A DNA stretch of 64,000 bases, from positions 11,036,001 to 11,100,000 of the forward strand of contig CM119385.1 in the NCBI GenBank assembly GCA_051294905.1. The letters run 5' to 3'. A program made the translations under genes and the position numbers. The notes below the pieces were generated by a model. It was not told where the DNA came from and searched no databases. It saw only the letters and a list, made by a program, of their open reading frames with translations. Shown in pieces: positions 21,100-40,500 of the stretch (positions are counted from its first letter, which is position 1; every line of letters starts with the position of its first letter). The DNA comes from Botryllus schlosseri (lineage: Eukaryota).

Positions 21100-23714
21100 C
21101 CTGTCAGACAAGATTTACATAAATTAATGTCATGTAAGCTACACGATCATCATCTGACATAAAATCTGCAGTTACCTTGGATGTAGCCTATGTATAATGT
21201 ATATAAACTACGCGCTGCTCTACACCGCTTCAAGACAACGCAGCTTGATGCATGAATTAATACATCATATAGCACTCGCCACCGTGACAGGAAATTGCCG
21301 TGTTGCGGACACGTGACTGCAAGCAGTCAGTTTTTACGTAGAGGTTACGCGTGTTACGTTATCCGAGTTGTCAACTGCCTAATTTGCCACTATACGTCGA
21401 TCGTTCGATGTACGATATCAAAAGACAGAACCGCCCGACCGATGAAACAAACCTCGGCCCGACGGACGAACACCGGGTCAGCGTCTGTATCATAAGCAAA
21501 CGGTGTATGGACGAGTGAACGTTCAATCAATTCTCCAAAGTTTTAGAATGAAAACTGTTAGTTCATCATATGAGCGTGACAGCCCCGCGGACAATCCTTT
21601 CCCATGCACGATTTACAGTCTAGGGTTACCATATTTATGATTCGGGAAAGAAGACCAAATCAGGAAAGTTAATCAAGACTGAAAACAGCCGATTTTGCTA
21701 TTTTTGCTCGAAAATTTGTGGGGTTGACTAAAAAAAGTCATCACGTTCGGTCTACTCCACTCTTTACCCACTTTTTAAATGTAGTGGTGGTGACTAAAAA
21801 ATGGTCGTCACTTTCAATGACTCCCGCCGAATGACCCGCTCGAACGTCCGTAGTAGCTATTTAGCGTCATTTAATCCGATTTTCAGCCGAATCAGTCCAT
21901 TATCCTAGCTGTAAAAGCTCTAAAGGAGGACGAAGTTTCAAAAAGGAGGACAATTAGGCGTCCTCAGAGGACATTTCCAAAAGCCTGAAAAATGAGGACA
22001 AATCCTCCTAAAGGAGGACGTATGGTAACCCTAAGCTATCTATCTGATGCTCCTATCATGATAGGCCTATATATTTGATCACCGGCTACTCGCGACTGCG
22101 TGTTCGAGGTGTCATTACAGTCGATCTTATACTAAACATTCCTCGCATCACATAGAGCACCTCGAGGTGGTCAAATACGCAGTTCATACTTTCATTGCCC
22201 TGACCAGATTTTAATTTGTAGGCTACACTACACTAGCTTTCGATTAGGACAAGTTTCATTACATCTGAGCGCTCGGATCACCAGCAATGGAACTACTAGG
22301 TGGTTTTAGCTGGCTGCTGCTGGTTTTAGCAGGCTCAGCAGTAGATGTCCCTGCGTATTCAAGTGTGACGATTGGGCTGAGCAATGAGCATTAAGCAATG
22401 AGCATCTATCACAGGGGTTGGTAAACTATACGGCCCGCGGGCCGCATGCGGCCTGCAACACCGTTTTGTGCAGCTCGTGAATGCCTCAAGAAGCGTTGTA
22501 AAAATATCGATAAAATCTGTACTAAAAGTCAAATTACTGTAGCTAATTGAATAAATTTTTCTTAATAATTTCAACCTGATATAAGTTCTACCATATAGGC
22601 GGCCCCGGTTCGTTTCCCGTCGGAGGTTTATCGGGCTCCTCTTCCCCCTCCGTTGCCGTTCTCAAGGCGACAAAAAAGTCCAGAAATTGACCGGACGAAA
22701 GAAAGCACTCACAAGGAATGGAAAGAGCTAGAAAGGGCCGATAGGCTTTAAAAATATCAACATCGAAAAAGACCTGTGACGGCGGGCACTCTAGGCCGAG
22801 GTGGGTGCAGAGGTGGTCAGTAACGAAGTAGGCCTACTTCTACTTTTTCGAATTACTCAAGTAGTTTTCCTCTACTTCTGGTACTTACTCAAGTAGGTCT
22901 TCTTTTCGCTACTTCTACTTCTACTTCGTAATATATTTTAAACTACTTACTTACTTTACGCTATTTTCAGTTTGTCAAATAGAAGTAGTTTAATCCCCCA
23001 ATAAGAAAGATAGCCTAAGGACTTTCGGGGCTGTTTCACGTAGTACCAATATTCAATTTTCATAAAAGTCATGTAATACCTAGAATTTTCGTTTCGCTTC
23101 GAGCACAGTAAATATGGAGTGACAAATATGTTTTAACGAAAGTATCGCTGAAAATAATTTAGATACCGCGGGTGGCGTGGTTCCGTTCACACCGCATTGT
23201 CGGCTATATCAAATATTTCATCACAGTAAGTATGACCCCCCATAACGTTTGAAACTACCGTTTCACAATCTAGCACTTGCCTATTATACCTAGCAGCCCA
23301 TGACGTGTCCTAATCTGGAAAAGTGGACTTTGACTTTTTTACCGTTAGACCTGTTTTAGCAGACCACCGTTAAAACTTTTTGGACAAAAGACATGAAATA
23401 TATTTTCCGCTTTTTAGAAATAGTATTCGTATTTTTATTTCAATTACGAGTATTATAGGTTGAGTTCTGATTATAGTTTCAGTTCATTTGTCTGAAGAAC
23501 ATACATGTTGAAGTATAAAAGCAAGAATAGTAATGCCTTATATTTTCGGAAAATAAAGCTATACACCCTATAGCATTTTTACGATCTGCCATATATTAAA
23601 TTACCGTACACTAATCGCGCAAAGTGTTCAAACTGTATCCGACACAACTTCTCCGTATTGCTCTTCGAATGAACTAGGGGCCTTAAGTAGTATTATACAC
23701 GGTAACGAGGCGCG

Positions 23715-23995
23715 CCCCAATCAGCGTCGAGTATTTGATCACGTGACATCTGTTAGCCAATCAGAATGCAGAACGAAGTGGGTGTGGTTCCAATACGAGA
23801 GAGGTTTTGGTTGTGTGAGAGATGGCATAGTTCCAGTCCAGTAACGCTGAGATATTTATTACGTCATTGCGTAAGTTGATTACCTATAATTGCGTATTGC
23901 AGCATGTGTATAATGATTACGTCATTATACGTCATTGCGTAAGTTGATTACCTATGATTGCGTATTGCACCATATTCATGATTACGTCACAAGCG
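23715..23995 (+). promoter_or_regulatory. TIR promoter: CCAAT boxes, CACGTG E-box, clustered TTACGTCA (ATF/CRE-type) sites in a ~65-bp duplicated unit
   Basis: CCAATCAG twice, ATCACGTGAC near 23739; TTACGTCA at 23859, 23917 and 23982, ATACGTCA at 23927; directly upstream of the Bcl-2 ORF. Confidence 0.6.
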
Positions 23996-24025
23996 TAGTT
24001 GATGCTCACTGTTATCTTCAAAACC

Positions 24026-24520
24026 ATGGAATTATTGCGAGTATCACCTGCGCTCACTGAAGAAAAGGATGAAATTATATCCACGGCATATTCCTTAGCT
24101 AGAAATTTTATCATGTATGAAATCGACGGCTCAAGCGTTAAAGCAAATACACAGGTGGAGAAAACCTTACGACGAGTTGTTACTGAAATATTTGAGCGAT
24201 ATCGAACTATCCTAAACGCAGTCTCCAAGCGCCTTCGTTATAGTGAAGTCAATGAGAAATATAAAGAACATTCACCCATTGAGCGAATGTTCCTGATGAT
24301 AGCCGATGAAATATTCAAAGATAGTCAAGAAAATTGGGGTCGGATTGTGTCTCTTTATGTGCTTGGCGGCATTCTTGCTCGCAATAACGAGGCTGCGCAT
24401 AACGGCAGGGATATAGATGCTATCATACAGACACTCGGGAATTACATTGCTACTAAAAAACGAAAGTGGATAGAACAAAATGGTGGATGGAGGCATTTTG
24501 TCACGTGGTATCACTTATAA
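24026..24520 (+). CDS. Bcl-2 family protein (viral Bcl-2-like), left TIR copy, 164 aa from the AAACCATGG start
   Basis: BH1 EIFKDSQENWGRIVSLYVLGG, BH2 WIEQNGGWRHF, BH3-like TLRRVVTEIFE; no C-terminal TM anchor; intronless. Confidence 0.9.
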   Translation: MELLRVSPALTEEKDEIISTAYSLARNFIMYEIDGSSVKANTQVEKTLRRVVTEIFERYRTILNAVSKRLRYSEVNEKYKEHSPIERMFLMIADEIFKDSQENWGRIVSLYVLGGILARNNEAAHNGRDIDAIIQTLGNYIATKKRKWIEQNGGWRHFVTWYHL

Positions 24521-24619
24521 AAGCTCGATCGCAGTTACTATTTGTTATATTTACATCATGGGTTCCGTGCGAATAAACGGTTGTAAGTTTATTGGATCCA
24601 AGGCCGTATCATGGATAGT

Positions 24620-24814
24620 GTGAAGTAGTTGTCTACCCAGAGCTTTTGCTCCTTTGGAAATCAAGGGTACCACACTACGTCCCAAACTGCGAAATAGATT
24701 ACCTAGACCGTGACCTCTTTGCACTCGACCTCGAAAGTAGTTTATGTCCCCTCCGCTTTGATTTCGATAATAGTGTTGAAAAGCTTCACGATCACAACAG
24801 TAATGTGCTCTCAT
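24620..24814 (-). pseudogene. 3'-truncated copy of the cement/pX-like gene running into the TIR
   Basis: Identical to the 36686 ORF up to LGRQLLHT, then reads antisense TIR sequence. Confidence 0.8.
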
Positions 24815-25541
24815 CGTGACGTAAAGCAAGTGTGATATGAACTACAGAACCATTCAGATTTATAGATGCACCTTTATCGTCTCTAATACTAATTCGAATT
24901 CGATTGGCATATTCCGCAATCATAGGGAAAAAGTAGATTTTCTCAAAAATGTGATGTTGGTATTCATTGTTAGCTGCTGTGATAGGGATATTTCGCAATA
25001 GCGGTGCATTCGTATCACCAACTGTTTGTGGTCGAATGAGATCGGTATAGACCAATAAATTACTTATCGGTGCGATGCTATCTCGCAGGAACATTTGCGA
25101 AGTTAAATATTTTCCTTGCGGTAAATTTTGTTCTTTAAGATTTCCATATACGAAAACCGGATTTCTGATTCTCTTTGGATTTCTTCGGAAATTCGGAAAG
25201 GCACCTGCTTCGCTAGGGGGAATGACTAGCATAGCCGTGGAGCTTGACAGCTGATTTATCCATACCTTTGTCTGAGTACGATTGATTCTATCGATCAAGC
25301 TTTTGAAATCATAATAATCCCCATTTGGATAGAAAAAATAATTATTGCTTTGCGCTGCCAACAGAGCAGATGATTTTTCCTCTTGAAATTCCCATAACAA
25401 TCCATTGAAATGGGGTAAAGTAGCTTGAAACTGATTACGAACTGAAAATTCTGCAAGCCCCAACTCCCATTTTCCAGTGATGGGACGCGCCAAGTCAAGT
25501 ACAAAATCCGATTTCGAACTGCTAATGTGAATGTATTTCAT
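24792..25541 (-). CDS. Minor capsid (penton-like) protein 2, intact copy, 249 aa
   Basis: N-terminal KWELGLAEF and C-terminal LLVYTDLIRPQTVGDTNAPLLRNI...IRISIRDDKG...VHITLALR match the Maverick minor-capsid pattern; full-length ORF. Confidence 0.85.
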   Translation of the reverse strand: MKYIHISSSKSDFVLDLARPITGKWELGLAEFSVRNQFQATLPHFNGLLWEFQEEKSSALLAAQSNNYFFYPNGDYYDFKSLIDRINRTQTKVWINQLSSSTAMLVIPPSEAGAFPNFRRNPKRIRNPVFVYGNLKEQNLPQGKYLTSQMFLRDSIAPISNLLVYTDLIRPQTVGDTNAPLLRNIPITAANNEYQHHIFEKIYFFPMIAEYANRIRISIRDDKGASINLNGSVVHITLALRHDESTLLL

Positions 25542-26159
25542 AACGCAATAGCACGCTTTCGAAATTGCAGTACAGCACTAGACGGTGCACTCCGAAAAGG
25601 AATTTTTTCACCCTTATCATTCAACAAAGATATTTTTATACGTTCCAATCTATTTATATTTATAGGGAAAAAGAAAGGCTTTATGTAGTATTTGGAAAAC
25701 GCCTTCTTATCTCCCTCGACTTTCACCACTCGCAATAGGCGCTGTAATGTACCATTGGATTCTTGCGGTTCAATAATATCGCAATGAACGTATACAAAGT
25801 CAATCGACGGTAAGGGTGTTATATCGAAATTGAAATGTATTTTTTTCTTTGAGAAAGAATATGCGGATAGCGCTGCTGTATTTGGTAACACGAAAGTCGC
25901 GAGAGTGTAGGCATCTGGAATTTCTATATTCTTCAACGTTGCTGTATAATCGTTCTCTGCAGTCACGATATTGCATTGCGTATCCACTCCTGGATAAAAG
26001 ATATCTGTGATGTCTTCGTGTGGAATTGACACAGTTAGGGTATTGCTCTCAGGAAAACATTTTACTGCTACATCGGGGTTGATACTTTCTATGGTTTTTA
26101 ACATGGCGTAGAGCGAGTCATATTGTCCAATTTTCAGGCGGAATCGTCTAAAGCTTTGT
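25538..26159 (-). pseudogene. 5'-truncated copy of penton-1
   Basis: Matches the 35158-35979 protein from QSFRRFRLK onward; lacks the first ~66 codons. The upstream 'N-terminus' in the ORF track is an alternative frame of ORF182. Confidence 0.8.
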
Positions 26160-26696
26160 CTGAGAATTGTTTGGCATCCATTTTTGATTGCCGTATTGCG
26201 TATTGCTATTTGGAAAGGTACCATTAGCATTGCCAGCATTCCGGAATCTTGCATTGGTATTCGACATGCCACCATTCCCAGCAAAGTTGCCATAACCATT
26301 TGGAAATCCCGCTTTTGCGCGATCCATAGGTTGTATTTGACCATTCGGCGCAATGTAACGCGATGTTTCTTGTAAAATCCACCCCAGCGGTGAATTTTCT
26401 ACGTCATCAACGACGTTCGACGGAGAATATAATATATATTCATCAGCGAGATTGATTTGCTGAAAGTATTCGATACCTTCTCGAGTGTAACACGCAACGA
26501 GCTTCCCATCATGAGTTAAACTTGCTTTGAATCTTTGTATTGCACCATTCGTTGGAAACACACGTACTTGTCGAGCATCGATCAGCTGATCGTCTGCAGT
26601 TTCGATTCGAAGCTTCGATATGTTATTGAAAATGTAAATGTCCTTCCGAAGAGCTCCTTCTGGGAGTTGCGACTCGGCTCTAATTGCTATAGACAT
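26148..26696 (-). CDS. Orphan Maverick protein (182 aa) with Gly/Asn-rich tail; C-terminus clipped by the duplication junction
   Basis: ATG-initiated ORF; its last codons ACA AAG CTT TAG lie inside the duplicated penton sequence. Confidence 0.65.
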   Translation of the reverse strand: MSIAIRAESQLPEGALRKDIYIFNNISKLRIETADDQLIDARQVRVFPTNGAIQRFKASLTHDGKLVACYTREGIEYFQQINLADEYILYSPSNVVDDVENSPLGWILQETSRYIAPNGQIQPMDRAKAGFPNGYGNFAGNGGMSNTNARFRNAGNANGTFPNSNTQYGNQKWMPNNSQTKL

Positions 26697-26806
26697 GATT
26701 CGATCTAAACAATGTCTCTTGAATAGAACTGAAATTATGGAGTAGCTACTGTGGTTTTTATAGACCTCGGCGTGTTCTTTTCTCTGATTTTTTTTTTTTT
26801 AAACTT

Positions 26807-27050
26807 AAATTTAAAATGATTGAATATCTCACACGTTGCGTCGCTGTTTTGCAACTGTCACAGATTCAAATTCAACGCAGCAGCTGTTATTTTTCAAATT
26901 TAAAATGATTATCTCGAACGTTGCGCAACTGTTTCACAACTGCCGCAGATTCAAATTCAACGCCGCAGCTGTTGTTTTTAAATTTAATATATCTCGGACG
27001 TTGCGCAACTGTCACTGGCACAGTTTCAAATTCATAGCCGCAGCTAGTTT
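26807..27050 (+). repeat. Three tandem ~85-bp units in the Maverick intergenic region
   Basis: Units start at 26807, 26896 and 26980 (AAATTTAA...ATCTC..ACGTTGCG...CAGATTCAAATTCAACGC.GCAGCTGTT). Confidence 0.85.
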
Positions 27051-27190
27051 GATAGGTGCATGCGTGTTATTGTGATCGCATACTAGGTGAGGGACCCACG
27101 TGAACACTTATTCATTGGAACTTAAACGCCTTAACCACTCAGCCAACTCAGTATATATTCACGATGTTTAGCCTCAGCTATGCGACCACT

Positions 27191-27398
27191 ATTTAGAGAT
27201 AGCAGTCATTTGCGTTTTTGATATTATAGAGTATTACGATCGAATCGCTACGAGTAACGCACTGTCTAACTCATTGGGGAATTGATTTTTCAACGCGATA
27301 TTTAGAGCTAGCAATGCTAAGTTCCACTAAGTCCGAACAGCTGCGTTTTGTTATTGTTGAGTATCGCGCAGTTGTCAATAGGGAATAGATTTTCAATG
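27191..27398 (+). repeat. Two degenerate ~109-bp tandem units
   Basis: ATTTAGAG.TAGCA...TGCGTTTT...GAGTAT...GGGAAT.GATTTT at 27191 and 27300. Confidence 0.6.
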
Positions 27399-27453
27399 GT
27401 TTAGATACGCTCAGTAGATACGCCGTTTAGACTTTAGTTATTGAGTATTGAGA

Positions 27454-27594
27454 ATGAATACTGAACAAGCCGTAAATGACGAGATGGAACAAGTCGCAGT
27501 AGATAACGAAAGTAGTACGACTCAAGTTGACGTGATTGACATCACCGGCGATGATTGCAGTAAAGCTAAATCAACCAGCGAAGATTTTGAATAA
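27454..27594 (+). CDS. 46-aa acidic micropeptide with a SUMO-interacting motif
   Basis: MNTEQAVNDEMEQVAVDNESSTTQVDVIDITGDDCSKAKSTSEDFE*; below the ORF-track cut-off. Confidence 0.55.
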   Translation: MNTEQAVNDEMEQVAVDNESSTTQVDVIDITGDDCSKAKSTSEDFE

Positions 27595-27622
27595 CAATCC
27601 TTAACTTTTTGTTATAATTCAA

Positions 27623-27860
27623 CGATTGCGTATTGCAGCATGTATAGTATTGATTACTTCATATGCATAGTTGATTACTTTAGTTATTACGAGAGCGTCA
27701 TTGCTTAGTTACAGTACCGCTGAGATATGATTGCGTCCAGTCCAATAACACCGAGAAATACGTTATTACGATTGTGTAGTTGAAGCATGTTCATGATTAC
27801 GTCATATGCGTAGTTGATTACTTTAGTAACGCTGAGATATGATTACTGCGTTGATTGCCT
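27623..27860 (+). promoter_or_regulatory. Internal copy of TIR promoter modules upstream of ORF217/pPolB
   Basis: Shares GATTGCGTATTGCAGCATGT, AGTAACGCTGAGATAT, AGTTGATTAC and CATGATTACGTCA blocks with 23840-23995. Confidence 0.65.
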
Positions 27861-27917
27861 TTGCAGTTGAAGCAAGTGCAAGGCAATATATAACGTGTAA
27901 TATTTAGTACATGACAT

Positions 27918-28571
27918 ATGTTTTTGAGTAGTGATATAGCAAGCTATGTATTGAGTACTTTTGAAAAGTTAAATGCCGACAAATCTATTTGCATGTTTCC
28001 GAATTGTGCTATTGTTTTCATTAATAATGCTGCTCTCCTAGAGACTATTATGACACGTACAGCTGTGAACTGTGATTATGGCTTGATTAAGCCTGCCTCT
28101 TTCTGGATGTTTTGTAAAAATGGCTCTGAGATCATTAATTCAATCTTTTATTGTTTGCAGCTCAGTATGGATAACTTTATTGACATAAGTGACTTGTTAG
28201 ATATGAACGCACCTCATCAAAGTGTAACGATGCAGGCTCCGAGAAAAGACATGAACAAGATATATCAGAGTCAAAATGAAAGCCGAAAGCGCTCGCGTCA
28301 AGACACTATGTCTTTGATCGAAGGTCTAGTTGACGACGATTTGAAGATGGAAGCTATGTGGAATCGACTTGTTTCGATGGAAGTATTTGACCAAGACTAC
28401 TCGAAAAATTTTCTAAACATAATTAAAAACACCATGAAAGACATTGAAAAACTATCTAGTGACTCGAATGCTTGCATTGTTGAGATTCAGCGTCTTGAAA
28501 AAATTAAGTTTGTGTTTCTATACGGTGTGATTAAATGTAAACTGCGCTTGAAATATGGATTCAATTTCTAA
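27918..28571 (+). CDS. Orphan Maverick protein, 217 aa
   Basis: ATG ORF overlapping the pPolB start; basic patch SRKRSR and helical C-terminal part; no family recognised. Confidence 0.7.
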   Translation: MFLSSDIASYVLSTFEKLNADKSICMFPNCAIVFINNAALLETIMTRTAVNCDYGLIKPASFWMFCKNGSEIINSIFYCLQLSMDNFIDISDLLDMNAPHQSVTMQAPRKDMNKIYQSQNESRKRSRQDTMSLIEGLVDDDLKMEAMWNRLVSMEVFDQDYSKNFLNIIKNTMKDIEKLSSDSNACIVEIQRLEKIKFVFLYGVIKCKLRLKYGFNF

Positions 28572-31500
28572 TATATGTACTGACTATTGTCTTGGTATTT
28601 TTCAGATACTAGTATCTATGGCGCGACGCAGGCGATATGGAGATCGTGGATTTCTGGTCGACGAAACGCTGGGTTTCGAACAAGACGGCATAGAGGTGAT
28701 TGAAAGACACTACGATTCCATCATCGATTCGACATGGACTTCAAGAAACAACTTACGAGAAATCATCAACATTCGAATGGTCGGAAGAGGTCCGCTCGAA
28801 ATTCACGCGCGTATTGCAGACATTTACCCCAGAAGATATCGTCAGTTCAAGATGAATTTCGCGTATGGGTACTTATTATTCAACCGTGACACATCCAGAT
28901 ATAGTTATTATCATCCTCAGAGTTCTCAAGCGGTTTTTACTGTCCCTAAAACTATCATATCACGCGAAGATTTCGATTCCGTCACGAATGAGATCGATTT
29001 GACGGCAGGTTTTGAATATGCCAATCGAGTGCGACCAGATACGAAATTCTACTGTGCTGATGTGTTGCATATTTCCATTTACATTTATGAGATGGATAGA
29101 GCTTTACTTGGTGGAAGTACTATCATTTCCCCGGAGATGCAAGCATTAAGCAAATGTAACTATATCATGACTTTCCTGCGTAACCAAAAAGGCAAAGCAT
29201 ATGAGGATTCTTTGTGTATTTTCCGCTGCGTTTCATATAGCATGAAAAAAAAGCGTAATGAAACACATGTTCGGCAATTGGCCGCGCAATTCACAGCCCG
29301 TTACGATATCTCGACTGAGAACGGAGTAGCTTTTGAAGACTTATCAAAAGTTGAGGATTGTTTTCAAGTTCAAATACTGCTTTATGAAAAACGTAATCAA
29401 GGCACAGTCATGCTGCGTAATTCTCATGCTAATGGAATGACTATACCTATTCACATGCAAGATCATCACTGTTGCCTGATTAGGGACCTGACATTGTACA
29501 CGTCTACCTATATGTGTGACAAGTGTAAATTTTTCTTTACTAGAAAAGATAATTTGATAGAGCATATGAAAAGCATTGATTGTGAGCGTCCTCAAAAACA
29601 GCGACACGGTTTCGGTATTTATCGCCCTAAGATGACTGTGTTTGAGCGAATGGCCGAACAAGGAATTTTGGTTAGCTCTGAAAAACGATATTACCCCTTC
29701 CGAATCGCTTATGATTTCGAGAGTTTACTAGAAAAAGAAAATCTTCGAGCTGACACACCGAAAGTTGAAATTGTCAACAAGCATGTTGCGGTATCGGTAT
29801 CTCTCTCAGATAATGTTACGAATGAAACGCATACACTCATTTCCAACGGTGATCCCAACGTTTTAATCAACGATATGGTGGCAAAACTATATGAAATTCA
29901 AAACGTCGCATCTTCGCATATGCGGCAGTTATTTGAAGAAGAATTGAAAGATTTTCGCATGTTAATAGAGCATCGCAATGCAATTGAACCAGGCAAAACT
30001 CGCTATTTAGATCGCTTGTATCGTCACTTCGAAATTTGGTTGGATCAAATACCTGTGATTGGATTCAACTCGGCTCGTTACGACTTGAATCTTTGTAAAA
30101 AATATTTGATTCCTATACTGCAAGAAGAAAGTGGATTTTTTGTTTTGAAACGAAACAGCGCATATCTGACCATCAGTACCAACCGATTGAAATTCCTTGA
30201 TATTTCACTGTTTCTGTCACCGGGTTATAGTTTGGACGCGTACTTGAAAATTTATGGAAATGGGGTGGACAAAAAATTCTATTTTCCATACGAGTACATG
30301 ACTTGTATTGATAAATTGAATGACACGCAATTACCTCCACACGAGATGTTCTATAGCAGTCATCGAGGCACTAATATCACCGCGGCGCAATACCAAGAAT
30401 GCGTAGATATGTGGAATCGTCTGCAAATGAAAACCATGCGAGACTTTCTAACTTTTTATAACGAAAGTGACGTGATTGGCTTTCTGGTTGCGTTAGGTAA
30501 TAACGCTGCCTTTTATCAAAAGTTGGGTATTGACATGTTCAAATCTGCTATCAGTTTACCAAGCATAGCCAATCGACTCATGTTTGCAGAATGTTATGAC
30601 ATCGCGCTGTTCAGTAAAGCGAATGCTGATCTCCATCAAACTGTAGTGAGCAATCTATTCGGTGGTCTGTCACAAATATCGACACGATTTGCAATGAAAG
30701 ACGAAACGAAAATTCGTGAAATACAGTACGGCGACGCAGCGAAATACGTGAAAAAGATAATCGGATATGACGCAAATTCGCTCTACCTCGCATCCATCGA
30801 TCAATGCATGCCGTGTGGATTTCCAATCAGGTGGTTGTATGACGAAACCAAACAAAAATTTCACAGAAAGCCAATTTACCCTGCGATGGCAGAACTCGAA
30901 TGGCTTACTTATGAAAGTTATCAGCGCGATATTTCAATTCAACACGCCTGGAACGGCAAGCAAGCTAAACTTGGCTCGCGTCAAATTTCGGTTGATGGCT
31001 TTTCGCTTGAATATCAATTGATATTCCAATATCATGGATGTTTTTTTCATTGTTGTGATCGGTGCTATAAGGACGACGCAAACATTGAGCGACGTATTAA
31101 AACAGAAGAAATCACTGCCTATCTCGAAGAGTTGGGATACACGATAATATCAATACGCGAATGTGAATGGAATCGCATGAAACTCAACCCTGACATTGCG
31201 CAGTTTGTTTCGTCACTACAAAGAAATGTAACAAAAGAATATTATCTCACTGCGAATCAACTATTAGATCGCGTATTTCATCAACAGTTCTTTGGGGCAT
31301 TGGAAGTCGATGCGTACTGCCCCGATGAATTAAAAGCAAAATATGCAGAATTTCCGCCATTTTGTAAACATATCTCGGTGGATTTATGCGATGTCGGCGA
31401 ACATATGCGCGAATATGCCCGTCAAAACAATGTGAAATTTCCAAAGAAGTTTTTGGGCTCTAGTTATTTCACTGAGAAACAACTAATTACAAGTGATTTG

Positions 31501-32484
31501 TTGGGTTGGTACATGGATCACGGTATGATTATTACACGCATATATCAAGCCGTGGAATACGAAGCCAAACGACCATTTCAAAAGTTTGTAAATTCTGTCG
31601 TAACGCAAAGGCGAAAGGGTGATGTAACCCCTAAAGACCCAGCACGTGAAATGGAGGCCTTGACCTTCAAATTATGTGGAAATTCCGCGTTTGGGTCCAC
31701 TATACAGAACCCAATGAAGTACAGAAACCATACCTATGTAAAAGGTGATGAGTTGAAATCACACATTCAGAAAAAAAACTTTATTGACGCCGATGAACTT
31801 TCTGAAGATCTGATCGAGGTTAGCTCGTTACCAGATTCAATTGACGTCGATCAACCGATCATTGTAGGTCTATTCATCTTTAACTCCAGTAAATTACGCA
31901 TGCTTTCGTTTCTGTATGACTTTTTACATGAGTATTTAGAGGAATGCGACTTCAGTTATTTGGAGGGAGATACTGATAGCCAATATCTGAGTTTATCAGC
32001 TGATTCAATCTACTCCCTAATTAAACCTTCGCGAAGGAAAGAATTTTTTCAAGTTCATGATGAATGGCTCATACAGAGAGCTTGCGCGCTGCATCGAGCA
32101 GACTTTGAGCGTGATCCGATCGCTTTCAAAACCACCGAACCGTGCTGTGTCGCTGCTTACAATTATGCTAAACGAATTCCTGGTCTGTTCAAAGTAGAAT
32201 GGGAGGGTCATGGGTTTATTGGATTGAACTCGAAAACGTATTACTGCAAGGGTGAGACTGATAAATATTCATCCAAAGGTTTGAGTAAATCCGCCTCTAA
32301 GACCTTCAAGGATTTTGAAGGCGTGTTGCAAAACCGTTCCACTTGCGGCGGGATTAATTCTGGGTTTCGCTGTTTTAATGGTAATATTTTTACTTATAAG
32401 CAATATCGTTCTGCTTTGTCGTATGGTTACTATAAAAGAGTTGTTTTGCCGGATGGCATACATACTGTACCGCTTTCATTGTAA
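28555..32484 (+). CDS. Protein-primed family B DNA polymerase (pPolB), 1309 aa
   Basis: Exo I AYDFES, Exo II GFNSARYD, Exo III YNESDV; motif A GYDANSLY, motif B KLCGNSAFG, motif C GDTDS; Zn finger CDKC..H and a Vsr-like insertion VDG...QYHGCFFHC. Confidence 0.97.
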   Translation: MDSISNICTDYCLGIFQILVSMARRRRYGDRGFLVDETLGFEQDGIEVIERHYDSIIDSTWTSRNNLREIINIRMVGRGPLEIHARIADIYPRRYRQFKMNFAYGYLLFNRDTSRYSYYHPQSSQAVFTVPKTIISREDFDSVTNEIDLTAGFEYANRVRPDTKFYCADVLHISIYIYEMDRALLGGSTIISPEMQALSKCNYIMTFLRNQKGKAYEDSLCIFRCVSYSMKKKRNETHVRQLAAQFTARYDISTENGVAFEDLSKVEDCFQVQILLYEKRNQGTVMLRNSHANGMTIPIHMQDHHCCLIRDLTLYTSTYMCDKCKFFFTRKDNLIEHMKSIDCERPQKQRHGFGIYRPKMTVFERMAEQGILVSSEKRYYPFRIAYDFESLLEKENLRADTPKVEIVNKHVAVSVSLSDNVTNETHTLISNGDPNVLINDMVAKLYEIQNVASSHMRQLFEEELKDFRMLIEHRNAIEPGKTRYLDRLYRHFEIWLDQIPVIGFNSARYDLNLCKKYLIPILQEESGFFVLKRNSAYLTISTNRLKFLDISLFLSPGYSLDAYLKIYGNGVDKKFYFPYEYMTCIDKLNDTQLPPHEMFYSSHRGTNITAAQYQECVDMWNRLQMKTMRDFLTFYNESDVIGFLVALGNNAAFYQKLGIDMFKSAISLPSIANRLMFAECYDIALFSKANADLHQTVVSNLFGGLSQISTRFAMKDETKIREIQYGDAAKYVKKIIGYDANSLYLASIDQCMPCGFPIRWLYDETKQKFHRKPIYPAMAELEWLTYESYQRDISIQHAWNGKQAKLGSRQISVDGFSLEYQLIFQYHGCFFHCCDRCYKDDANIERRIKTEEITAYLEELGYTIISIRECEWNRMKLNPDIAQFVSSLQRNVTKEYYLTANQLLDRVFHQQFFGALEVDAYCPDELKAKYAEFPPFCKHISVDLCDVGEHMREYARQNNVKFPKKFLGSSYFTEKQLITSDLLGWYMDHGMIITRIYQAVEYEAKRPFQKFVNSVVTQRRKGDVTPKDPAREMEALTFKLCGNSAFGSTIQNPMKYRNHTYVKGDELKSHIQKKNFIDADELSEDLIEVSSLPDSIDVDQPIIVGLFIFNSSKLRMLSFLYDFLHEYLEECDFSYLEGDTDSQYLSLSADSIYSLIKPSRRKEFFQVHDEWLIQRACALHRADFERDPIAFKTTEPCCVAAYNYAKRIPGLFKVEWEGHGFIGLNSKTYYCKGETDKYSSKGLSKSASKTFKDFEGVLQNRSTCGGINSGFRCFNGNIFTYKQYRSALSYGYYKRVVLPDGIHTVPLSL

Positions 32485-32488
32485 TAAA

Positions 32489-33109
32489 ATGAACCGTGCA
32501 CGTGTTTTATACTCGCCTCTTCGTATGATAATTAGTGGAGCATCGTCCAGTGGAAAAACAGTTTTCGCCTATAGAATCATACAAAATGCCGACAAGCTCA
32601 TCGTACCTCGACCGAGAAAGATCATCTGGTTATATAATAACTATCAACCGTTGTATGATAAGATGAAAGGAGTGTCATTTTACAAGGGTCTAGACAAGTT
32701 GAAAGATTTACAGAGAGCTAATAGTGAACATACGTTAATTGTGCTAGATGACATGATGACGCAAGCAAGTCAAGTGCGTGAACTGTTCACCAGATATAGT
32801 CATCACATGTCGCTCTCAGTGGTGTTTCTCTGTCAAAATCTATTTCACCGTGGAGCAGGCTTCCGTGACATTACGCTGTCTAGCAACTATATTGTCATCA
32901 TGAAAAATCCTCGTGATTCCGCCCAGATTCGATATCTTTCACGTCAAATGTTTCCAGATAAACCAAATTTTCTCACGGAAGCCTACAAGAGAGCAACTCG
33001 TAAGCCTTATAGTTATATCATGGTTGATTTGACGCAGGAAACACCCGAACAGTATCGACTTCGCAGCAACATTTTTCCAAGCGAACGTATGACCGTGTAT
33101 TTGGAATAA
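32489..33109 (+). CDS. A32/FtsK-like DNA packaging ATPase, 206 aa (start MNRARV)
   Basis: Walker A GASSSGKT, Walker B LIVLDD, FLCQNLF motif. Confidence 0.93.
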   Translation: MNRARVLYSPLRMIISGASSSGKTVFAYRIIQNADKLIVPRPRKIIWLYNNYQPLYDKMKGVSFYKGLDKLKDLQRANSEHTLIVLDDMMTQASQVRELFTRYSHHMSLSVVFLCQNLFHRGAGFRDITLSSNYIVIMKNPRDSAQIRYLSRQMFPDKPNFLTEAYKRATRKPYSYIMVDLTQETPEQYRLRSNIFPSERMTVYLE

Positions 33110-33144
33110 ATAGCGCTGTACTCGAACATCCACTATCATTCGCA

Positions 33145-33549
33145 ATGGCGAGGTCACGCGGTGTTTTGAAAAAAACTTTAAATAATCATCTTATCAAGTT
33201 GAAGCTGCTAAAGAGTGCTAAAAAGAAGGAACGTAACGAGTTATTAACTCACAAAGCTTTTACTAGCTGTGTGTGTGAGTGTCTTCGTAACCTTGTCTCG
33301 GGCAATATAGCTATTTCAAGTACGAGTAAGGCACGATTGAAGAAGCATAAAACTAACATTCGCAAAGTGTTGTGCTGTAAATCTCAAAAACAGAAGCAAA
33401 AAACATTACAACAGGGTGGCTTTTTATCAGGTGAATATACATGCGATTCGATTCGATTCATGATCTAACTTTAATGATTGATAGCGATCTTAAGTGCTGC
33501 AATTCCGATTATTGGAAGTCTGTTGGGCGGATTGACTAGACATGCGTGA
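33145..33549 (+). CDS. Basic core protein (pVII/PW-like), spliced: exons 33145-33430 and 33485-33549, 116 aa
   Basis: CECLRNLVSGN and QQGG|F adenain-type site; removing the GT-AG intron restores the amphipathic end QQGGFLSAILSAAIPIIGSLLGGLTRHA. Confidence 0.8.
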
Positions 33550-34003
33550 ATTGTACTTCCCGTCTTTACAATCAAAAGACGCCTACGAAAAGAAATTCAA
33601 TGAACATATCGCAAGCATCAGGGACTCTGATTTGACACGCACCGAAAAATTAGCACTATTTCAACACGGCATTAGACTATTGAGAAATCTACGTGCAAAT
33701 AAGAAATTGATCAAGTCGTCGTCCCGCGCACCCGCAGCGCCCGCTACCGATGAAACAATTGCCGCGTCGCATCCGCCCGGAGCGGCGCCCGCTATTAATA
33801 ACACATTTGACGCGACACCTCCGCCCGCAACACCCGAGATTTGGAACAATTACGAAGCGGTAACTCCACCCCATACACCTAAAACTTCAAAGAAAAAAGT
33901 TAAAAAGAAGAAAGCCAATAAACCTCCAGTTAATTGGCAAAGCATTGACGGTCCGCGCAAACGAAAGCCGAATCAACGCTACACAGGAAAGTTATGGACA
34001 TGA
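33542..34003 (+). CDS. Maverick virion/core-type protein, Pro/Ala-rich middle and Lys-rich tail, 153 aa
   Basis: ATG overlaps the spliced upstream stop; helical IRDSDLTRTEKLALFQ segment is like the conserved small ORF found before Maverick integrases. Confidence 0.7.
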   Translation: MRELYFPSLQSKDAYEKKFNEHIASIRDSDLTRTEKLALFQHGIRLLRNLRANKKLIKSSSRAPAAPATDETIAASHPPGAAPAINNTFDATPPPATPEIWNNYEAVTPPHTPKTSKKKVKKKKANKPPVNWQSIDGPRKRKPNQRYTGKLWT

Positions 34004-35001
34004 CGCAAGACTATTTCGATCCCCGCAAACCAAACTCCTATAGAGGAGCTTATTTACAGAAAGACAAAGAATGGTTGAAATCAGAACAAAGTTATACCCT
34101 GCATTTTCCTATACGAAAAAAATTTACTCGCGAGAAGGTGGTAGTCTCTGGAATTGATAGTCAGTTTCAGAGCGATTTGATTGATGTGCAGTCTATTTCT
34201 AAATACAATCGTGGATTTAGATATCTGGCTTTGGTTATTGATACGTTTTCAAAGTTTGTGTGGTTGATTCCAATTAAAGATAAAACTGGTCGCAGTATGA
34301 TTTCTGCTTTCCGACAAGTGTTCAATGAGAGGCTGCCTTTAGTGTTGCAGACTGATAGAGGTACAGAATATACCAATCGAGCTTTTCAAAACTTTCTCAA
34401 GAAAAATAAAGTTCGTTACTTTTACACAAAAAGCGAATTGAAGTCGTCTCTCGCCGAGCGCTGTATTAGGACTTTCAAGGCAATCTTGTACCGCTATTTC
34501 ACAAAGAATAACACCAGTAAATACATCGACGTGCTACAGGATTTCGTATATTCCTATAATCACACCAAACATACGTCGTTAGGTATGGCTCCTAGTCAAG
34601 TCAATTCACACAATCAAGAAGCTATTTGGCAAAAAATGTACGGGTTTCGACAAGCTACACTTCCCACACTGACGAAAGGGACAGCCGTACGCATTTCGAA
34701 AATTCGCGGGCTTTTTGAAAAGAGCAGTAGACCCAATTGGACAACTGAGATATTTTATATCATCGACGCAATGGCTGGTGACCCTCCGATGTATCACCTG
34801 CGTGACTATAATCATGATGTCATCGATGGGAGGTTTTACAGAGAAGAACTACAGGTAGTGACCGAACCTACAGAGTGGCGTGTTGAAAAGATTATAAAGA
34901 GACGTCAACGCGGCAAACACCGTCAGTATTTAGTGAAATGGGTAGGATATGGATCAGAATTCAATTCCTGGGTCGATCAAAAAGATATCGTCAAACCGTA
35001 A
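33994..35001 (+). CDS. Retroviral-type (rve) DDE integrase with C-terminal chromodomain, 335 aa
   Basis: QSDLID, QTDRGTEY and AERCIRT catalytic motifs; chromodomain WRVEKII...YLVKWVGY...NSWV. Confidence 0.95.
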   Translation: MDMTQDYFDPRKPNSYRGAYLQKDKEWLKSEQSYTLHFPIRKKFTREKVVVSGIDSQFQSDLIDVQSISKYNRGFRYLALVIDTFSKFVWLIPIKDKTGRSMISAFRQVFNERLPLVLQTDRGTEYTNRAFQNFLKKNKVRYFYTKSELKSSLAERCIRTFKAILYRYFTKNNTSKYIDVLQDFVYSYNHTKHTSLGMAPSQVNSHNQEAIWQKMYGFRQATLPTLTKGTAVRISKIRGLFEKSSRPNWTTEIFYIIDAMAGDPPMYHLRDYNHDVIDGRFYREELQVVTEPTEWRVEKIIKRRQRGKHRQYLVKWVGYGSEFNSWVDQKDIVKP

Positions 35002-35161
35002 CTTTTATCAATTCATCGCTCAAGTCGTGGTTATATTGATCATAGTGATTTTTTCACTCTACAATTTAACAATCGTTCAAGAAAACAAGGAGCTTTGGGT
35101 ATCGTTATTATCGTCGTGTGTGGGTTATATGTTACCAGCTCCAAAAATACCTAAACTATGA
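34949..35161 (+). CDS. Small two-TM membrane protein
   Basis: FIAQVVVILIIVIFSLYNL and LWVSLLSSCVGYMLPAP; TATGA overlap with the penton-1 start; typical Maverick small hydrophobic ORF. Confidence 0.7.
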   Translation: MDQNSIPGSIKKISSNRNFYQFIAQVVVILIIVIFSLYNLTIVQENKELWVSLLSSCVGYMLPAPKIPKL

Positions 35162-35979
35162 GTTATGTGACGTTATTTTCCAATGCTTCTATGGACATGT
35201 TTCCTGGCAATACAACCGCAGAATATGTCAACGAAATGCAGACGGCTAGAAATGTAGAGAGAAATGAAGTCGCTCTGACGGAGATCAGTTTTCCAAGAGA
35301 TTTTGAAAAACGTATCGAGTCACAAGCTTCTTTCGGATTCCAAATTACGGGTATCGAACAAAGCTTTAGACGATTCCGGTTGAAAACAGGACAATATGAC
35401 TCGCTCTACGCCATGTTAAAAACCTTGGAAAGTATCAACCCTGATGTAGCAGTAAAATGTTTTCCTGAGAGCAATACCCTAACTGTGTCAATTCCACACG
35501 AAGACATCGCAGATATTTTATATCCAGGAGTGGATACGCAATGCAATATCGTGACTGCAGAGAACGATTATACAGCAACGTTGAAGAATATAGAAATTCC
35601 AGATGCCTATACTCTCGCGACTTTTGTGCTACCAAATACAGCAGCGCTATCCGCATATTCTTTCTCAAAGAAAAAAATACATTTCAATTTCGATATAACA
35701 CCCTTACCGTCGATTGACTTTGTATACGTTCATTGCGATATTATTGAACCGCAAGAATCCAATGGTACATTACAGCGCCTATTGCGAGTGGTGAAAGTCG
35801 AGGGAGATAAGAAGGCGTTTTCCAAATACTACATAAAGCCTTTCTTTTTCCCTGTAAATATAAATAGATTGGAGCGTATAAAAATATCTTTGTTGAATGA
35901 TAAGGCTGAAAAAATTCCTTTTCGGAGTGCACCGTCTAGTGCTGTATTGCAATTTCGAAAGCGTGCTATTGCGTTATGA
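35158..35979 (+). CDS. Minor capsid protein (penton) 1, 273 aa
   Basis: N-terminal YVTLFSNASMDMFPGNT and C-terminal VYVHCDIIEPQ...LLRVV...IKISLLNDK...VLQFRK match the Maverick penton pattern. Confidence 0.9.
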   Translation: MSYVTLFSNASMDMFPGNTTAEYVNEMQTARNVERNEVALTEISFPRDFEKRIESQASFGFQITGIEQSFRRFRLKTGQYDSLYAMLKTLESINPDVAVKCFPESNTLTVSIPHEDIADILYPGVDTQCNIVTAENDYTATLKNIEIPDAYTLATFVLPNTAALSAYSFSKKKIHFNFDITPLPSIDFVYVHCDIIEPQESNGTLQRLLRVVKVEGDKKAFSKYYIKPFFFPVNINRLERIKISLLNDKAEKIPFRSAPSSAVLQFRKRAIAL

Positions 35980-36708
35980 AATACATTCACATTAGCAGTT
36001 CGGAATCGGATTTTGTACTTGACTTGGCACGTCCCATCACCGGAAAATGGGAGTTGGGGCTTGCAGAATTTTCAGTTCGTAATCAGTTTCAAGCAACTTT
36101 ACCTCATTTCAATGGATTGTTATGGGAATTTCAAGAGGAAAAATCATCTGCTCTGTTGGCAGCGCAAAGCAATAATTATTTTTTCTATCCAAATGGGGAT
36201 TATTATGATTTCAAAAGCTTGATCGATAGAATCAATCGTAGTCAGACAAAGGTATGGATAAATCAGTTGTCAAGCTCCACGGCTATGCTAGTCATACCCC
36301 CTAGCGAAGCAGGTGCCTTTCCGAATTTCCGAAGAAATCCAAAGAGAATCAGAAACCCGGTTTTCGTATATGGGAATCTTAAACAACAACATTTACCGCA
36401 AGGAAAATATTTAACTTCGCAAATGTTCCTGCGAGATGGCATCGAGCCTATTAGTAATTTATTGGTCTATACCGATCTCATTCGACCGCAAACAGTCGGC
36501 GATACGAATGCACCGCTATTGCGAAATATCCCTATCACAGCAACATCACATTTTTGAGAAAATCTACTTTTTCCCTATGATTGCGGAATATGCCAATCGA
36601 ATTCGAATTAGTATTAGAGACGATAAAGGAGAATCTATAAATCTGAATGGTTCTGTAGTTCATATCACACTTGCTTTACGTCACGATGAGAGCACATTAC
36701 TGTTGTGA
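35976..36708 (+). pseudogene. Penton-like protein 2, frameshifted by a 17-bp deletion at 36542/36543
   Basis: ORF stops at 36557; the C-terminus continues in another frame to 36708. The inverted copy keeps GCTAACAATGAATACCA (24958-24974). Confidence 0.88.
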
Positions 36709-37054
36709 TCGTGAAGCTTTTCAACACTATTATCGAAATCAAAGCGGAGGGGACATAAACTACTTTCGAGGTCGAGTGCAAAGAGGTCACGGTCTAGGTA
36801 ATCTATTTCGCAGTTTGGGACGTAGTGTGGTACCCTTGATTTCCAAAGGAGCAAAAGCTCTGGGTAGACAACTACTTCACACCGGGGCTGAAGTCGCTTC
36901 TGACGTATTGGGAGGACAAAACATTGGAGAAAGCTTTAAAATCAGAGGAAAGCAAGCTGCTAGTCAAGCACTTGATAATTTCCTAGGGAAGAGAAAAGCA
37001 CCTAAAAAGAAAAATACCAAACGGAAAAAACGTCGCCGGGATATTTTTGATTAA
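36686..37054 (+). CDS. Cement/pX-pVI-like virion protein (start MRAHYCC)
   Basis: QSGG and QRGHGLG Gly motifs, amphipathic GLGNLFRSLGRSVVPLISKG helix, basic tail; lies just before hexon. Confidence 0.8.
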   Translation: MRAHYCCDREAFQHYYRNQSGGDINYFRGRVQRGHGLGNLFRSLGRSVVPLISKGAKALGRQLLHTGAEVASDVLGGQNIGESFKIRGKQAASQALDNFLGKRKAPKKKNTKRKKRRRDIFD

Positions 37055-37104
37055 ATACAAATAGCAAGCCTTCCTCTTTTCATTTACAAGTAGACCCGCG
37101 GAAC

Positions 37105-38382
37105 ATGACGGAGCTGATTCATAGCAAATCTGCTGAAGGTATTCATCCGTCTTTAGACCTTTTCCAGATACCACCTACTCAGACGAGTGTAGAGAAAAAA
37201 CGTATCATCAAGATACCCCCTGTTTCGGACAATGAATCCGTCATAACTTTCAGATACGAGGGGTGTGGAGATTTCATAGATCTAAGCGAATCTTATTTTT
37301 TATTTCGTTTGAAACTGTTGAAAGGCGATGCGGATTTAGTCGCAAATGATGATATTGGCGTTGTCAATAACATTTTAGATTCAATGATTTCACAACTTCA
37401 CATTAAAGTTGGAAATCACACGATCAAGCAGGATATAAAACTACAGGCGTATTCAGCCTACTTGAACTATCTGTTCGCCCCACAAGACGTACAAAAGTCA
37501 ACGCTTTTGACACAGGGTTGGGTCAAAGATACCCCTGAGCAATTAGATGATAAGGCTATAGGCGATGCTGCAGCTAACAAAGGTCACAACGCGAGAAGTT
37601 TGCCTTTTGCAATCAGTAAAGTTGTTGAAATTAGAGGCCGAATACATCACGGATTATGCTTACAAGACCGTTACATTCTGGACGAGGTACCCTTGGAGTT
37701 CGAACTCACTTTGAACCCGAAAAGTTTCTTTCTGTTTGGAGTGAATACTAGCAATTTCAAAATTATTAAAAAAGAGCTGCAATTGTGTGGTGTGAAAGTA
37801 AGCGAAGATGTGAAATCCGCTATGATGGTCGATGCTCCAGCTAGATATCCGTTTATGGACATGAAGCTTCTGACAAGAACTTTCGCAGCTAACACCACTC
37901 AAATCGATATTGGTAATCTGTATTCGGGTACTCTACCGACTCGTTTAATCATCGGTATGGTAGCGACTAAGGCATTCCAGGGTGCGTTCGATAAAAATCC
38001 ATACAATTTTATTCATAACAAAATGAAGCGTGTCGAATTGAAAGTCAATGGTTTCCTGATACCGGAAGGTGGATACGAACTTGATTTTGAAAACAATCAC
38101 TATTCTGAAGCCTATCTCAATATGGTTCAAGGCATAGGAGCTCTCGAAAAACAGATCGGAGTTCTCACCCCGAAGGAATTCGCTAATGGATATACTCTTC
38201 TAGTATATAACTTGCGAGCTGATGATTTAGACGACTGTTTCGAACTGCAGAAAAGCGGTACCCTTAGTCTGCGCATCACTTTTCCTGCTGATGGTGTCGC
38301 GAGCGAAACAACTCTGCTTTGTTTCATGGAATTTCAAAAAATACTGGAAATAAGCCAAGCTCGCACCGTTACTGTAATATGA
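37105..38382 (+). CDS. Major capsid protein (hexon, double jelly-roll), 425 aa
   Basis: SLDLFQIPPTQTSVE N-terminus, GTLPTRLIIGMV...AFQG..KNPYNF, and C-terminal GTLSLRITF...MEFQKILEI match the Maverick MCP pattern. Confidence 0.95.
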   Translation: MTELIHSKSAEGIHPSLDLFQIPPTQTSVEKKRIIKIPPVSDNESVITFRYEGCGDFIDLSESYFLFRLKLLKGDADLVANDDIGVVNNILDSMISQLHIKVGNHTIKQDIKLQAYSAYLNYLFAPQDVQKSTLLTQGWVKDTPEQLDDKAIGDAAANKGHNARSLPFAISKVVEIRGRIHHGLCLQDRYILDEVPLEFELTLNPKSFFLFGVNTSNFKIIKKELQLCGVKVSEDVKSAMMVDAPARYPFMDMKLLTRTFAANTTQIDIGNLYSGTLPTRLIIGMVATKAFQGAFDKNPYNFIHNKMKRVELKVNGFLIPEGGYELDFENNHYSEAYLNMVQGIGALEKQIGVLTPKEFANGYTLLVYNLRADDLDDCFELQKSGTLSLRITFPADGVASETTLLCFMEFQKILEISQARTVTVI

Positions 38383-38831
38383 ACGGACTAGAAATAGATG
38401 AAATATTGTATAGTTACGATTCCACCAAACGACATTATCTAGGAAATTTTCCTATTGATCGACTTCCTCGGCGACCGAAAGCTCCCTACTCATTAATCAT
38501 TAATTATGACGAGGCCGACGAACCAGGAAGTCACTGGGTATGCATCTACGCTGATGAATATGGAACTCATTATCATGACAGCTTCGGCATAACTCCGTTC
38601 AGAAACGAAATACCCTGTTTCTTAGAACCTGAAAAGTATACAAGTTCGATCAAACCATTACAGCACAAACGTTCAGAGGCTTGCGGAGCGCACGCAATTT
38701 CATTCCTAAGCTGCCGCAGTGATGGTATGAGCACGCTGTCTTATTTAGACCACTTCGGAAAAGATAAGAAACACAACGATAGTATAGTCTGGGACTTTGT
38801 TCAAAGATTGAAACGAAATGCGAGCAAATAG
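38379..38831 (+). CDS. Adenain-like cysteine maturation protease (start MNGLEI), 150 aa
   Basis: Catalytic H (GSHW), D (YHDSFG), Q (LQH) and C (SEACG); ATATGA overlap with the hexon stop. Confidence 0.93.
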   Translation: MNGLEIDEILYSYDSTKRHYLGNFPIDRLPRRPKAPYSLIINYDEADEPGSHWVCIYADEYGTHYHDSFGITPFRNEIPCFLEPEKYTSSIKPLQHKRSEACGAHAISFLSCRSDGMSTLSYLDHFGKDKKHNDSIVWDFVQRLKRNASK

Positions 38832-39135
38832 CTTCACTGTCATACAGTACTTTGGAGATGAGAAGATTCGACTGAAAATCAGAGAAAAAATCATTGTAAT
38901 GAATCCTGAACGCATTCACAGACTTTCATCTGATAGCTTTCATATACGTATTTATCCGCATGACCGAGATATTACATTATTCATTGGAACTGATTGGTTG
39001 CCTGTACGCTTTCCTAATCATTGTATGTACATAGACGTGTTATCGAAACATAGAATTGCTCAACAAATCAGTGAAGAATTTGTTGTTTTTCGTAGACTAA
39101 AAATCTGGGAATCTCTGACTAGATCGCGTATATAA
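38818..39135 (+). CDS. Orphan accessory protein, 105 aa
   Basis: ATG overlaps the protease end; beta-rich; no family recognised. Confidence 0.6.
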   Translation: MRANSFTVIQYFGDEKIRLKIREKIIVMNPERIHRLSSDSFHIRIYPHDRDITLFIGTDWLPVRFPNHCMYIDVLSKHRIAQQISEEFVVFRRLKIWESLTRSRI

Positions 39136-39252
39136 ATGGAAGATGCCGATGATATCTTAGCTGTCGTGTTCATCGTACTGCTTACTATTTGTTGTATACT
39201 GGAATGGGTATCATGTTGCTGTCAAGAACGTGAGCAAGCTAGTGAAGCATGA
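39136..39252 (+). CDS. 38-aa single-TM, Cys-rich micropeptide
   Basis: MEDADDILAVVFIVLLTICCILEWVSCCCQEREQASEA*; abuts the upstream stop (TAA-ATG) and overlaps the next start (ATGA). Confidence 0.6.
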   Translation: MEDADDILAVVFIVLLTICCILEWVSCCCQEREQASEA

Positions 39253-39566: not shown

Positions 39567-39617
39567 ATCACTGACTCGTGTTCGGTTGTGTTTATCCATT
39601 AGGTAGTAGCAAAATGC

Positions 39618-39689
39618 AGATTCGTCCGGGATTTGAACCCGGGACCTCTCGCTCCCAAAGCGAGCATCATACCCCTAGACCAACGAATC
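39618..39689 (-). tRNA. tRNA-Pro(UGG), Maverick-encoded
   Basis: 72 nt: GATTCGT/ACGAATC acceptor stem, CTCGC-TTTGGGA-GCGAG anticodon arm, CCGGG-TTCAAAT-CCCGG T arm; A and B boxes intact; TTTT terminator 3 nt downstream. Confidence 0.93.
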
Positions 39690-40336: not shown

Positions 40337-40405
40337 TCTGAGTGACAATCAAATTGAAATGATTGCGCCACCTTTGCGTCATTAGCACTTCAACGGAAAA
40401 AAGAG

Positions 40406-40477: not shown

Positions 40478-40500
40478 AAGCGATAGTGACGGCTTAAATG

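Follow-up and report, generated by a model that had tools for sequence, protein, structure and literature searches.

The 64,000-nt stretch of DNA analysed here (the window) harbors a Maverick/Polinton (adintovirus-like) element of 17,987 bp at 23686..41672, delineated by its AGTAGT...ACTACT ends, target-site duplication (TSD), and gene set. The termini carry the (AGT)2//(ACT)2 motif of Mavericks/Polintons, and the TSD has the 6-bp length of this group, with its left copy at 23680..23685 and its right copy at 41673..41678 (both plus strand). Terminal inverted repeats (TIRs) of 934 bp occupy 23686..24619 (plus strand) and 40739..41672 (minus strand). They match at 934 of 934 positions by self-BLAST, in keeping with the identity reported by an earlier, sequence-only reading of this DNA, and the inner end of the left TIR is a junction, J1.

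The element splits a host repeat. Over their whole length, the two flanks match paralogous copies of this repeat at ~13.4-13.8 kb and 44.7-45.1 kb with 73-84% identity. In these two copies the flanks are contiguous, and the TSD hexamer occurs once in the first of them, at 13613-13618. The insertion is single, clean, and recent. One host repeat family surrounds it in several nested pieces (10800-14070, 22600-23685, and 41673-46310), with the landing site inside one copy; nested inverted and tandem host repeats that are 88-97% identical also cluster at 58616-62186. A host exon of a TM7S3/TM198-like gene lies at 6385-6678 (minus strand). The flank carries this exon together with a hAT fragment and has a CpG observed/expected ratio of 0.84-1.0, and the genome around the element is probably that of an animal.

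Within the left TIR is a complete Bcl-2-family gene (24002..24520, plus strand; PF00452, E 1.1e-20) with a polyA hexamer at 24572; it is wholly enclosed by the repeat and is thus present in two identical copies, the second at 40838-41356 on the minus strand. The central region encodes a putative polymerase ORF (28555..32484, plus strand) in which exonuclease motifs I-III and polymerase motifs A-C, all six of which we take to be marks of a family B polymerase, appear in order; it returned no Pfam PolB, PHROG, or PDB match. One Cys motif at residue 221, possibly that of an OTU-like domain at the N-terminus, likewise had no profile match. An A32-like packaging ATPase (32378..33109, plus strand; PF04665, E 1.1e-9) is followed by two small ORFs of 107 and 153 aa (33145..34003, plus strand), placed in the PM and PZ positions from synteny alone, and by an integrase (33994..35001, plus strand) that has the rve domain of Mavericks/Polintons (PF00665, E 1.8e-13), a C-terminal chromodomain (PF00385), and DDE motifs. 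Beyond the penton genes discussed below lie a 425-aa major capsid protein (MCP; 37105..38382, plus strand), full length relative to its homologues, the closest named of which is a limpet protein, P0006 ‘Major capsid protein’ (30% identity, E 4.5e-41), and an adenain-like cysteine protease (38379..38831, plus strand; ASFV pS273R, E 0.0026; H, D, Q...C motifs). The A32-like ATPase, cysteine protease, and MCP of a Maverick are therefore all present, the MCP on sequence evidence.

The right accessory region (39618-40477) encodes an E2 ubiquitin-conjugating enzyme (39866..40336, minus strand; PF00179, E 1.9e-48) with a tRNA gene on either side, tRNA-Pro(TGG) at 39618..39689 and tRNA-Ala(TGC) at 40405..40477 (both minus strand); our literature search returned nothing relevant on an E2 gene flanked by tRNAs. 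Four further ORFs have no significant Pfam match: one of 217 aa (27918-28571), a hydrophobic one of 70 aa (34949-35161), and two of 105 aa (38818-39566). PHROGs returned no match for eight proteins of the element. Three gene pairs overlap by 4 nt (the 70-aa ORF and penton-1 at 35158, penton-1 and penton-2 at 35976, and the MCP and protease at 38379), and the late genes have few polyA hexamers between them, which hints at translational coupling or splicing. Short repeated motifs with TTACGTCA, which we take to be CRE-like, occur at 23860-23990, 41369-41498, and 27620-27830, that is, upstream of the Bcl-2 gene as well as upstream of both ORF217 and the polymerase; they are possibly shared early promoters.

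As the sequence-only reading proposed, 24618..26159 is an inverted copy (minus strand) of the native penton block at 35358..36882 (plus strand), recovered by self-BLAST as a minus-strand match of 1542 columns with 96.4% identity, 39 mismatches, and 1 gap. The alignment resolves these into 39 substitutions, of which 24 are transitions and 15 are transversions, plus a single indel of 17 nt near 36541. The same reading described the two copies as broken in complementary ways, and this description holds. In the native block, penton-1 is full length (35158..35979, plus strand; 273 aa), and penton-2 (35976..36708, plus strand) is frameshifted near 36541, where it is 17 nt shorter than the copy; it departs from its frame at about codon 189 and stops after 193 codons, with the C-terminal part left in another frame (ORF 36436-36708). 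In the inverted block, penton-2 is uninterrupted (24792..25541, minus strand; 249 aa), and penton-1 lacks 67 codons. The amino-acid differences that had been quoted between the copies (KEQN/KQQH and DSIA/DGIE) are likewise present, as are the three sites at which the copies differ within the first 101 nt of penton-2, two of these changes being synonymous.

What remains of penton-1 in the inverted block belongs to a chimeric ORF of 268 codons (25538..26344, minus strand), in which ~61 codons of an alternative frame of a neighboring ORF, ORF182, lead into penton-1 from native codon 68, without the first three jelly-roll strands. The 67 missing residues include 20 of the 46 conserved columns of the penton family. 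We reject the chimeric ORF as a working penton-1, both for this loss and for an N-terminus that is an alternative frame of ORF182. The block edge at 36882 also cuts a small basic ORF (36686..37054, plus strand; 122 aa), which by synteny occupies the place of PW in vertebrate Mavericks, and the truncated copy (24551..24814, minus strand) continues into the TIR. The sequence-only reading was correct that this gene is truncated in the copy; its label of ‘cement’ gene found no support, and the ORF has no Pfam or PHROG match.

The label ‘penton’ for the other two genes was borne out by fold. The genes are paralogous (E 5e-7), and their family is large, with 5,887 representatives at an E of 0.001 or less. 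Sequence-profile searches of the PDB with the penton alignment reached E 0.022 at best, and fold searches decided the identity. The two models, each from an alignment of 118 rows (mean pLDDT 79 and 91), match capsid entries from mavirus, Sputnik, PBCV-1, and adenovirus. For the penton-2 copy, the top Foldseek match is the mavirus penton 6g41 (E 7.8e-8), and comparison with 6ncl_a6 gives a VIA Z of 13.7 (rmsd 3.0, 131 aligned). Native penton-1 gives a VIA Z of 14.4 with 6ncl_a6 (rmsd 2.9, 137 aligned) and a Z of 11.7 with the mavirus penton (rmsd 7.5, 220 aligned). Both ORFs thus have the single jelly roll of a Maverick/Polinton minor capsid (penton) protein. Because the jelly roll is built of N- and C-terminal strands, the models predict that each break removes strands from it and that both are likely fatal. 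Full tandem double pentons occur in 5 of 148 fetched homologues (P0015, P0018, P0019, P0022, and P0074; 540-625 aa, with two full penton domains in tandem), and these double pentons, along with the constraint on both genes described below, suggest two penton roles.

The block is one part of a larger rearrangement. From 23686 to 26159 the left arm consists throughout of inverted right-arm sequence in unchanged order: the TIR, a jump at J1 (24618..24619, with a 2-nt overlap), the block, and a strand reversal at the second junction, J2 (26159..26160), where the block abuts ORF182. The 3,856 nt of right arm absent at J1 correspond to the major capsid, protease, tRNA, and E2 genes. The block supplies the final 3 codons and the stop of ORF182 (26148..26696, minus strand), a putative gene that was probably cut at J2; ORF182 has no match in Pfam, PHROG, or Atlas (best Atlas score 0.77, uninformative). 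At J1, the putative ORF125 (40501..40878, minus strand), which starts within the right TIR, has a left counterpart that ends after 47 codons, 4 nt past the junction; its Atlas search (0.91, unnamed clusters, low recognition) was also uninformative. That both junctions cut putative ORFs is suggestive of arm replacement over insertion. A replaced left arm, TIR included, fits the arrangement better than an inserted block, a point absent from the sequence-only reading. That reading had invoked template switching on the basis of a 2-bp GT microhomology at the TIR junction. The GT overlap is there; an overlap of at least 2 nt, however, arises in 16.7% of junctions placed at random within this arm (50,000 trials), a chance level, and it is therefore uninformative as to mechanism.

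The pattern of substitutions indicates where the two copies diverged. Counted over the 505 codons of the duplicated block, synonymous differences outnumber nonsynonymous ones (25.5 vs 13.5), and 23 of the 39 fall at third codon positions. The resulting dS of 0.075 (a silent-site divergence of about 7.5%) and dN of 0.012 give a ratio of 0.156 (0.18 for penton-1 and 0.13 for penton-2), a pairwise value that, for such close sequences, does not tell on which branch a change occurred. Neutral simulations with transition weighting (20,000 runs) never gave a synonymous count above 22. A model with both copies neutral is rejected under transition weighting (P 2e-6 to 1e-5). A model with one neutral and one fully constrained copy gives P 0.003-0.02 for the whole block and P 0.015-0.03 for penton-2; for penton-1 alone it is not rejected (P 0.06-0.21). 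Decay at CpG sites was rejected as the source of the differences, 8 of the 39 being CpG-context transitions.

The TIRs hold 0 differences in 933 positions vs 39 in 1525 for the block (Fisher P 9e-9), and given this, at most about 5 of the 39 differences can postdate insertion. Mostly synonymous differences in the block and none in the TIRs support the view that divergence took place elsewhere than at this locus, in functioning lineages and for the most part with both copies still functional. The divergence accordingly does not look neutral, and the proposal of the sequence-only reading that the block came from a related genotype is supported. Polarising the amino-acid differences by distant homologues (12 residues, 116 homologues) was informative at one column only; at this near-invariant position (108 of 116 homologues) the family residue is retained in the truncated penton-1 copy and absent from the full-length native gene, so the copy looks unlike the decaying one, and either copy may be the foreign one.

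The donor of the block remains hypothetical, as no sibling element was found. Exact look-ups recovered none of ten ORFs of the element. Penton-2 had no match among 274 candidates; penton-1 had 2 among 399 (best 64% protein identity), and the MCP had 7 among 6631 (best 70% protein identity). A GTDB contig scan yielded 104 pattern matches, none confirmed as a sibling, and the flanks within the window hold no fragments of the element.

We propose, at somewhat better than even confidence, that this is a recombinant Maverick that carries an inverted right arm in place of its former left one, the block being derived from a sibling genotype; a two-genotype origin of the block is itself likely. The first step would be a non-homologous, strand-reversing join at J2 that linked the left part of one genome, cut within ORF182, to a right arm lying in the opposite orientation and cut within penton-1. 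Such a join would resemble the expansion of inverted terminal repeats (ITRs) in poxviruses; the J2 sequence is observed, and the mechanism is our inference. In a second step, the 3,856 nt missing at J1 would have been deleted from the new arm or would already have been missing in the donor; an undeleted product would measure 21.8 kb. Third, terminal-repeat pairing during protein-primed replication may keep identical only the 934 nt contiguous with the terminus. In adenoviruses, TIRs are homogenised by panhandle pairing. Homogenisation limited to the terminal 934 nt would have let the internal block keep its differences. Finally, as the sequence shows, the element entered the host repeat by a recent integrase-type insertion with a 6-bp TSD.

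One feature runs against a pure two-genotype join without conversion or mosaic ancestry, namely the 250 nt beside J1 (36633-36882), which carry no differences (change-point permutation P 0.005) where such a join leads us to expect some. A second identical tract lies at 35630-35853. The signal is weaker on four-fold sites alone (201 sites, 13 differences), where the longest run free of differences has P 0.019 and the next longest P 0.09. Such clumping could arise if conversion was partial, if the ancestry is mosaic, or if the PW-position gene is under stronger constraint. Alternatively, the two identical tracts could be remnants of an inverted arm that the element first made from itself, homologous recombination with a sibling having later replaced most of one copy or the other. 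This sequence of events yields the same purifying signature, and we regard it as unlikely. Differences begin 21 nt from J2, and a homologous crossover would have had little space on the copy side, so that the native copy would have to be the one replaced; one extra event is also required.

It is also conceivable, if quite improbable, that the left arm was restored after integration by gap repair from another resident copy of the element. A TIR end would have invaded the right TIR of a sibling deletion derivative, copied 1.5 kb, and returned illegitimately at J2. Identical TIRs date divergence and not joining, so the join itself could postdate integration, and the same purifying signature and junctions are predicted. 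This path needs a resident donor that bears J1, and none lies within the window; moreover, TIR identity extends to the very base of the junction, which leaves room for very little copied donor TIR.

We give a similarly low weight to an artefact, in which the left arm is an assembly chimera with reads from another copy or haplotype of the family or the native indel is a consensus error. The virophage study PMC8547959 describes assembly errors caused by multi-copy elements with TIRs and nonsense mutations that re-sequencing did not uphold, and a collapse can also yield perfect TIR identity. Against this, the TSDs match, the flanks are contiguous, and the window contains no N; the two sharp, non-homologous junctions would not result from merging collinear alleles; and the 17-nt indel is not a homopolymer slip, the longest nearby run being 5 nt. 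Lastly, a duplication in situ, after which the two copies drifted independently for long and decayed reciprocally, makes a second genotype unnecessary and sits comfortably with the one-neutral-copy result for penton-1 and with the lack of nonsense changes among the 39 differences (unremarkable, P 0.21), but we consider it very improbable in view of the whole-block tests (P 1e-5 or lower with both copies neutral; P 0.003-0.02 with one) and the limit of about 5 differences since integration.

Returning to the proposed recombinant Maverick with a sibling-derived arm, we find each penton uninterrupted once in the whole element and no visible break in any other core ORF. Penton-2 makes up 7.4% of core coding sequence and is at once the sole frameshifted core ORF and the sole gene duplicated whole, a suggestive coincidence. 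The indel falls in the stretch of greatest likeness between the copies (36501-36882, with 2 differences), which mildly suggests that it was a late event. Redundancy followed by tolerated loss, or plain decay, is the simplest account of the native frameshift. Selection for penton rescue is possible; redundancy and then loss of the native gene predicts the same picture, so rescue is not distinguished from it, and the feature is no proof of selection as repair. Further points against rescue are the seemingly late indel and the fact that some adintoviruses have no detectable penton (PMC11071296).

Expression of the inverted block appears plausible from sequence features. A TATA-like box lies upstream of ORF182 (26757..26762, minus strand), and the first minus-strand polyA hexamer downstream of it is at 24588-24593, past the block; we assume that both motifs have their usual functions. 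The block would then lie within a transcription unit that runs from the TATA-like box to the TIR polyA hexamer, with penton-2 as the third cistron of this putative ORF182 unit. By geometry, the 1.5-kb internal inverted repeats could also flip the 9.2-kb core between them (26160-35357) into isomers. A stronger version, in which both pentons are needed, the block is expressed from the ORF182 TATA box, the core flips, and the recombinant was selected and spread because it complements itself, strikes us as doubtful. If true, it would constitute direct evidence that Maverick genotypes co-replicate in one cell and that virion assembly is under selection in an animal Maverick.

The closest known systems are the Mavericks/Polintons (Barreat and Katzourakis 2021, PMC8097293), with their int-mcp-pw-Mcp-pro module, and the adintoviruses (Starrett 2021, PMC8502044). 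With these, the element shares its (AGT)2//(ACT)2 ends, 6-bp TSD, integrase chromodomain, Bcl-2 accessory gene, and the order putative pPolB, ATPase, two small ORFs, integrase, penton, PW position, MCP, and protease, a gene order that agrees with the vertebrate Maverick modules (PMC8097293). It also falls within the described ranges for TIRs (46-1,447 bp) and element length (12.7-24.6 kb; PMC8097293 and PMC8502044). Unlike known Mavericks and adintoviruses, it features an inverted, diverged second penton block in its left arm, two paralogous pentons, a Bcl-2 gene within both TIRs, an E2 gene, and two tRNAs; duplicate pentons are described for a few adintoviruses (PMC11071296).

Recombination and mosaicism are already known in this virus group, and poxviruses and virophages provide precedents for the mechanism. 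Known cases include module swaps between Alpha and Beta adintoviruses (PMC8502044), polymerase replacement (PMC10748475), and Maverick recombination inferred from protein modularity, or domain shuffling (10.1101/2022.07.12.499685). In the main texts searched, we found no report of a Maverick in which part of the penton block recurs in inverted and diverged form with reciprocal breaks. As presented in PMC8097293 and PMC10748475, virus-like replication and recombination of animal Mavericks are mostly argued from phylogenies. One element with two capsid-gene alleles under purifying selection is a record, within a single molecule, of Maverick genotypes meeting. Its weight is that of a single copy known from an assembly alone, with a hypothetical donor and a mechanism that has precedents.

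Relative to the mosaic elements of protists, the present recombinant differs mainly in scale and orientation. Cafeteria endogenous virophages regenerate TIRs after truncation (Hackl 2021, PMC8547959), and mosaic Polisuviricotina include contigs with tandem morphogenesis modules (Barth 2026, 10.64898/2026.10.13.758929). These are likewise recombinant elements; as described there, they feature swaps between distant module types or whole modules in tandem, in contrast to the partial, inverted block with reciprocal breaks that is proposed here to have passed between near-identical siblings.

Finally, the poxviruses provide the nearest likeness of mechanism. ITR expansion, or terminal transposition, by non-homologous recombination of oppositely oriented poxvirus genomes is described for mpox (2022, PMC10230479). 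Both that expansion and the rearrangement reported here swap one end for the inverted other, lose resident sequence, and cut genes at the junction, so that an inverted arm copy with loss at the junction is common to the two. Unlike the poxvirus case, in which the duplicated arm is contiguous with the ITR, the arm here is neither contiguous with nor identical to its counterpart, having a 3,856-nt (3.9-kb) deletion and 39 substitutions, and it holds core virion genes. The likeness is one of how the two work and not of membership. Overall, the feature is real, a rare snapshot of recombination between such viruses, and arm replacement of the poxvirus kind offers Mavericks a concrete route for change in TIR length and gene content.
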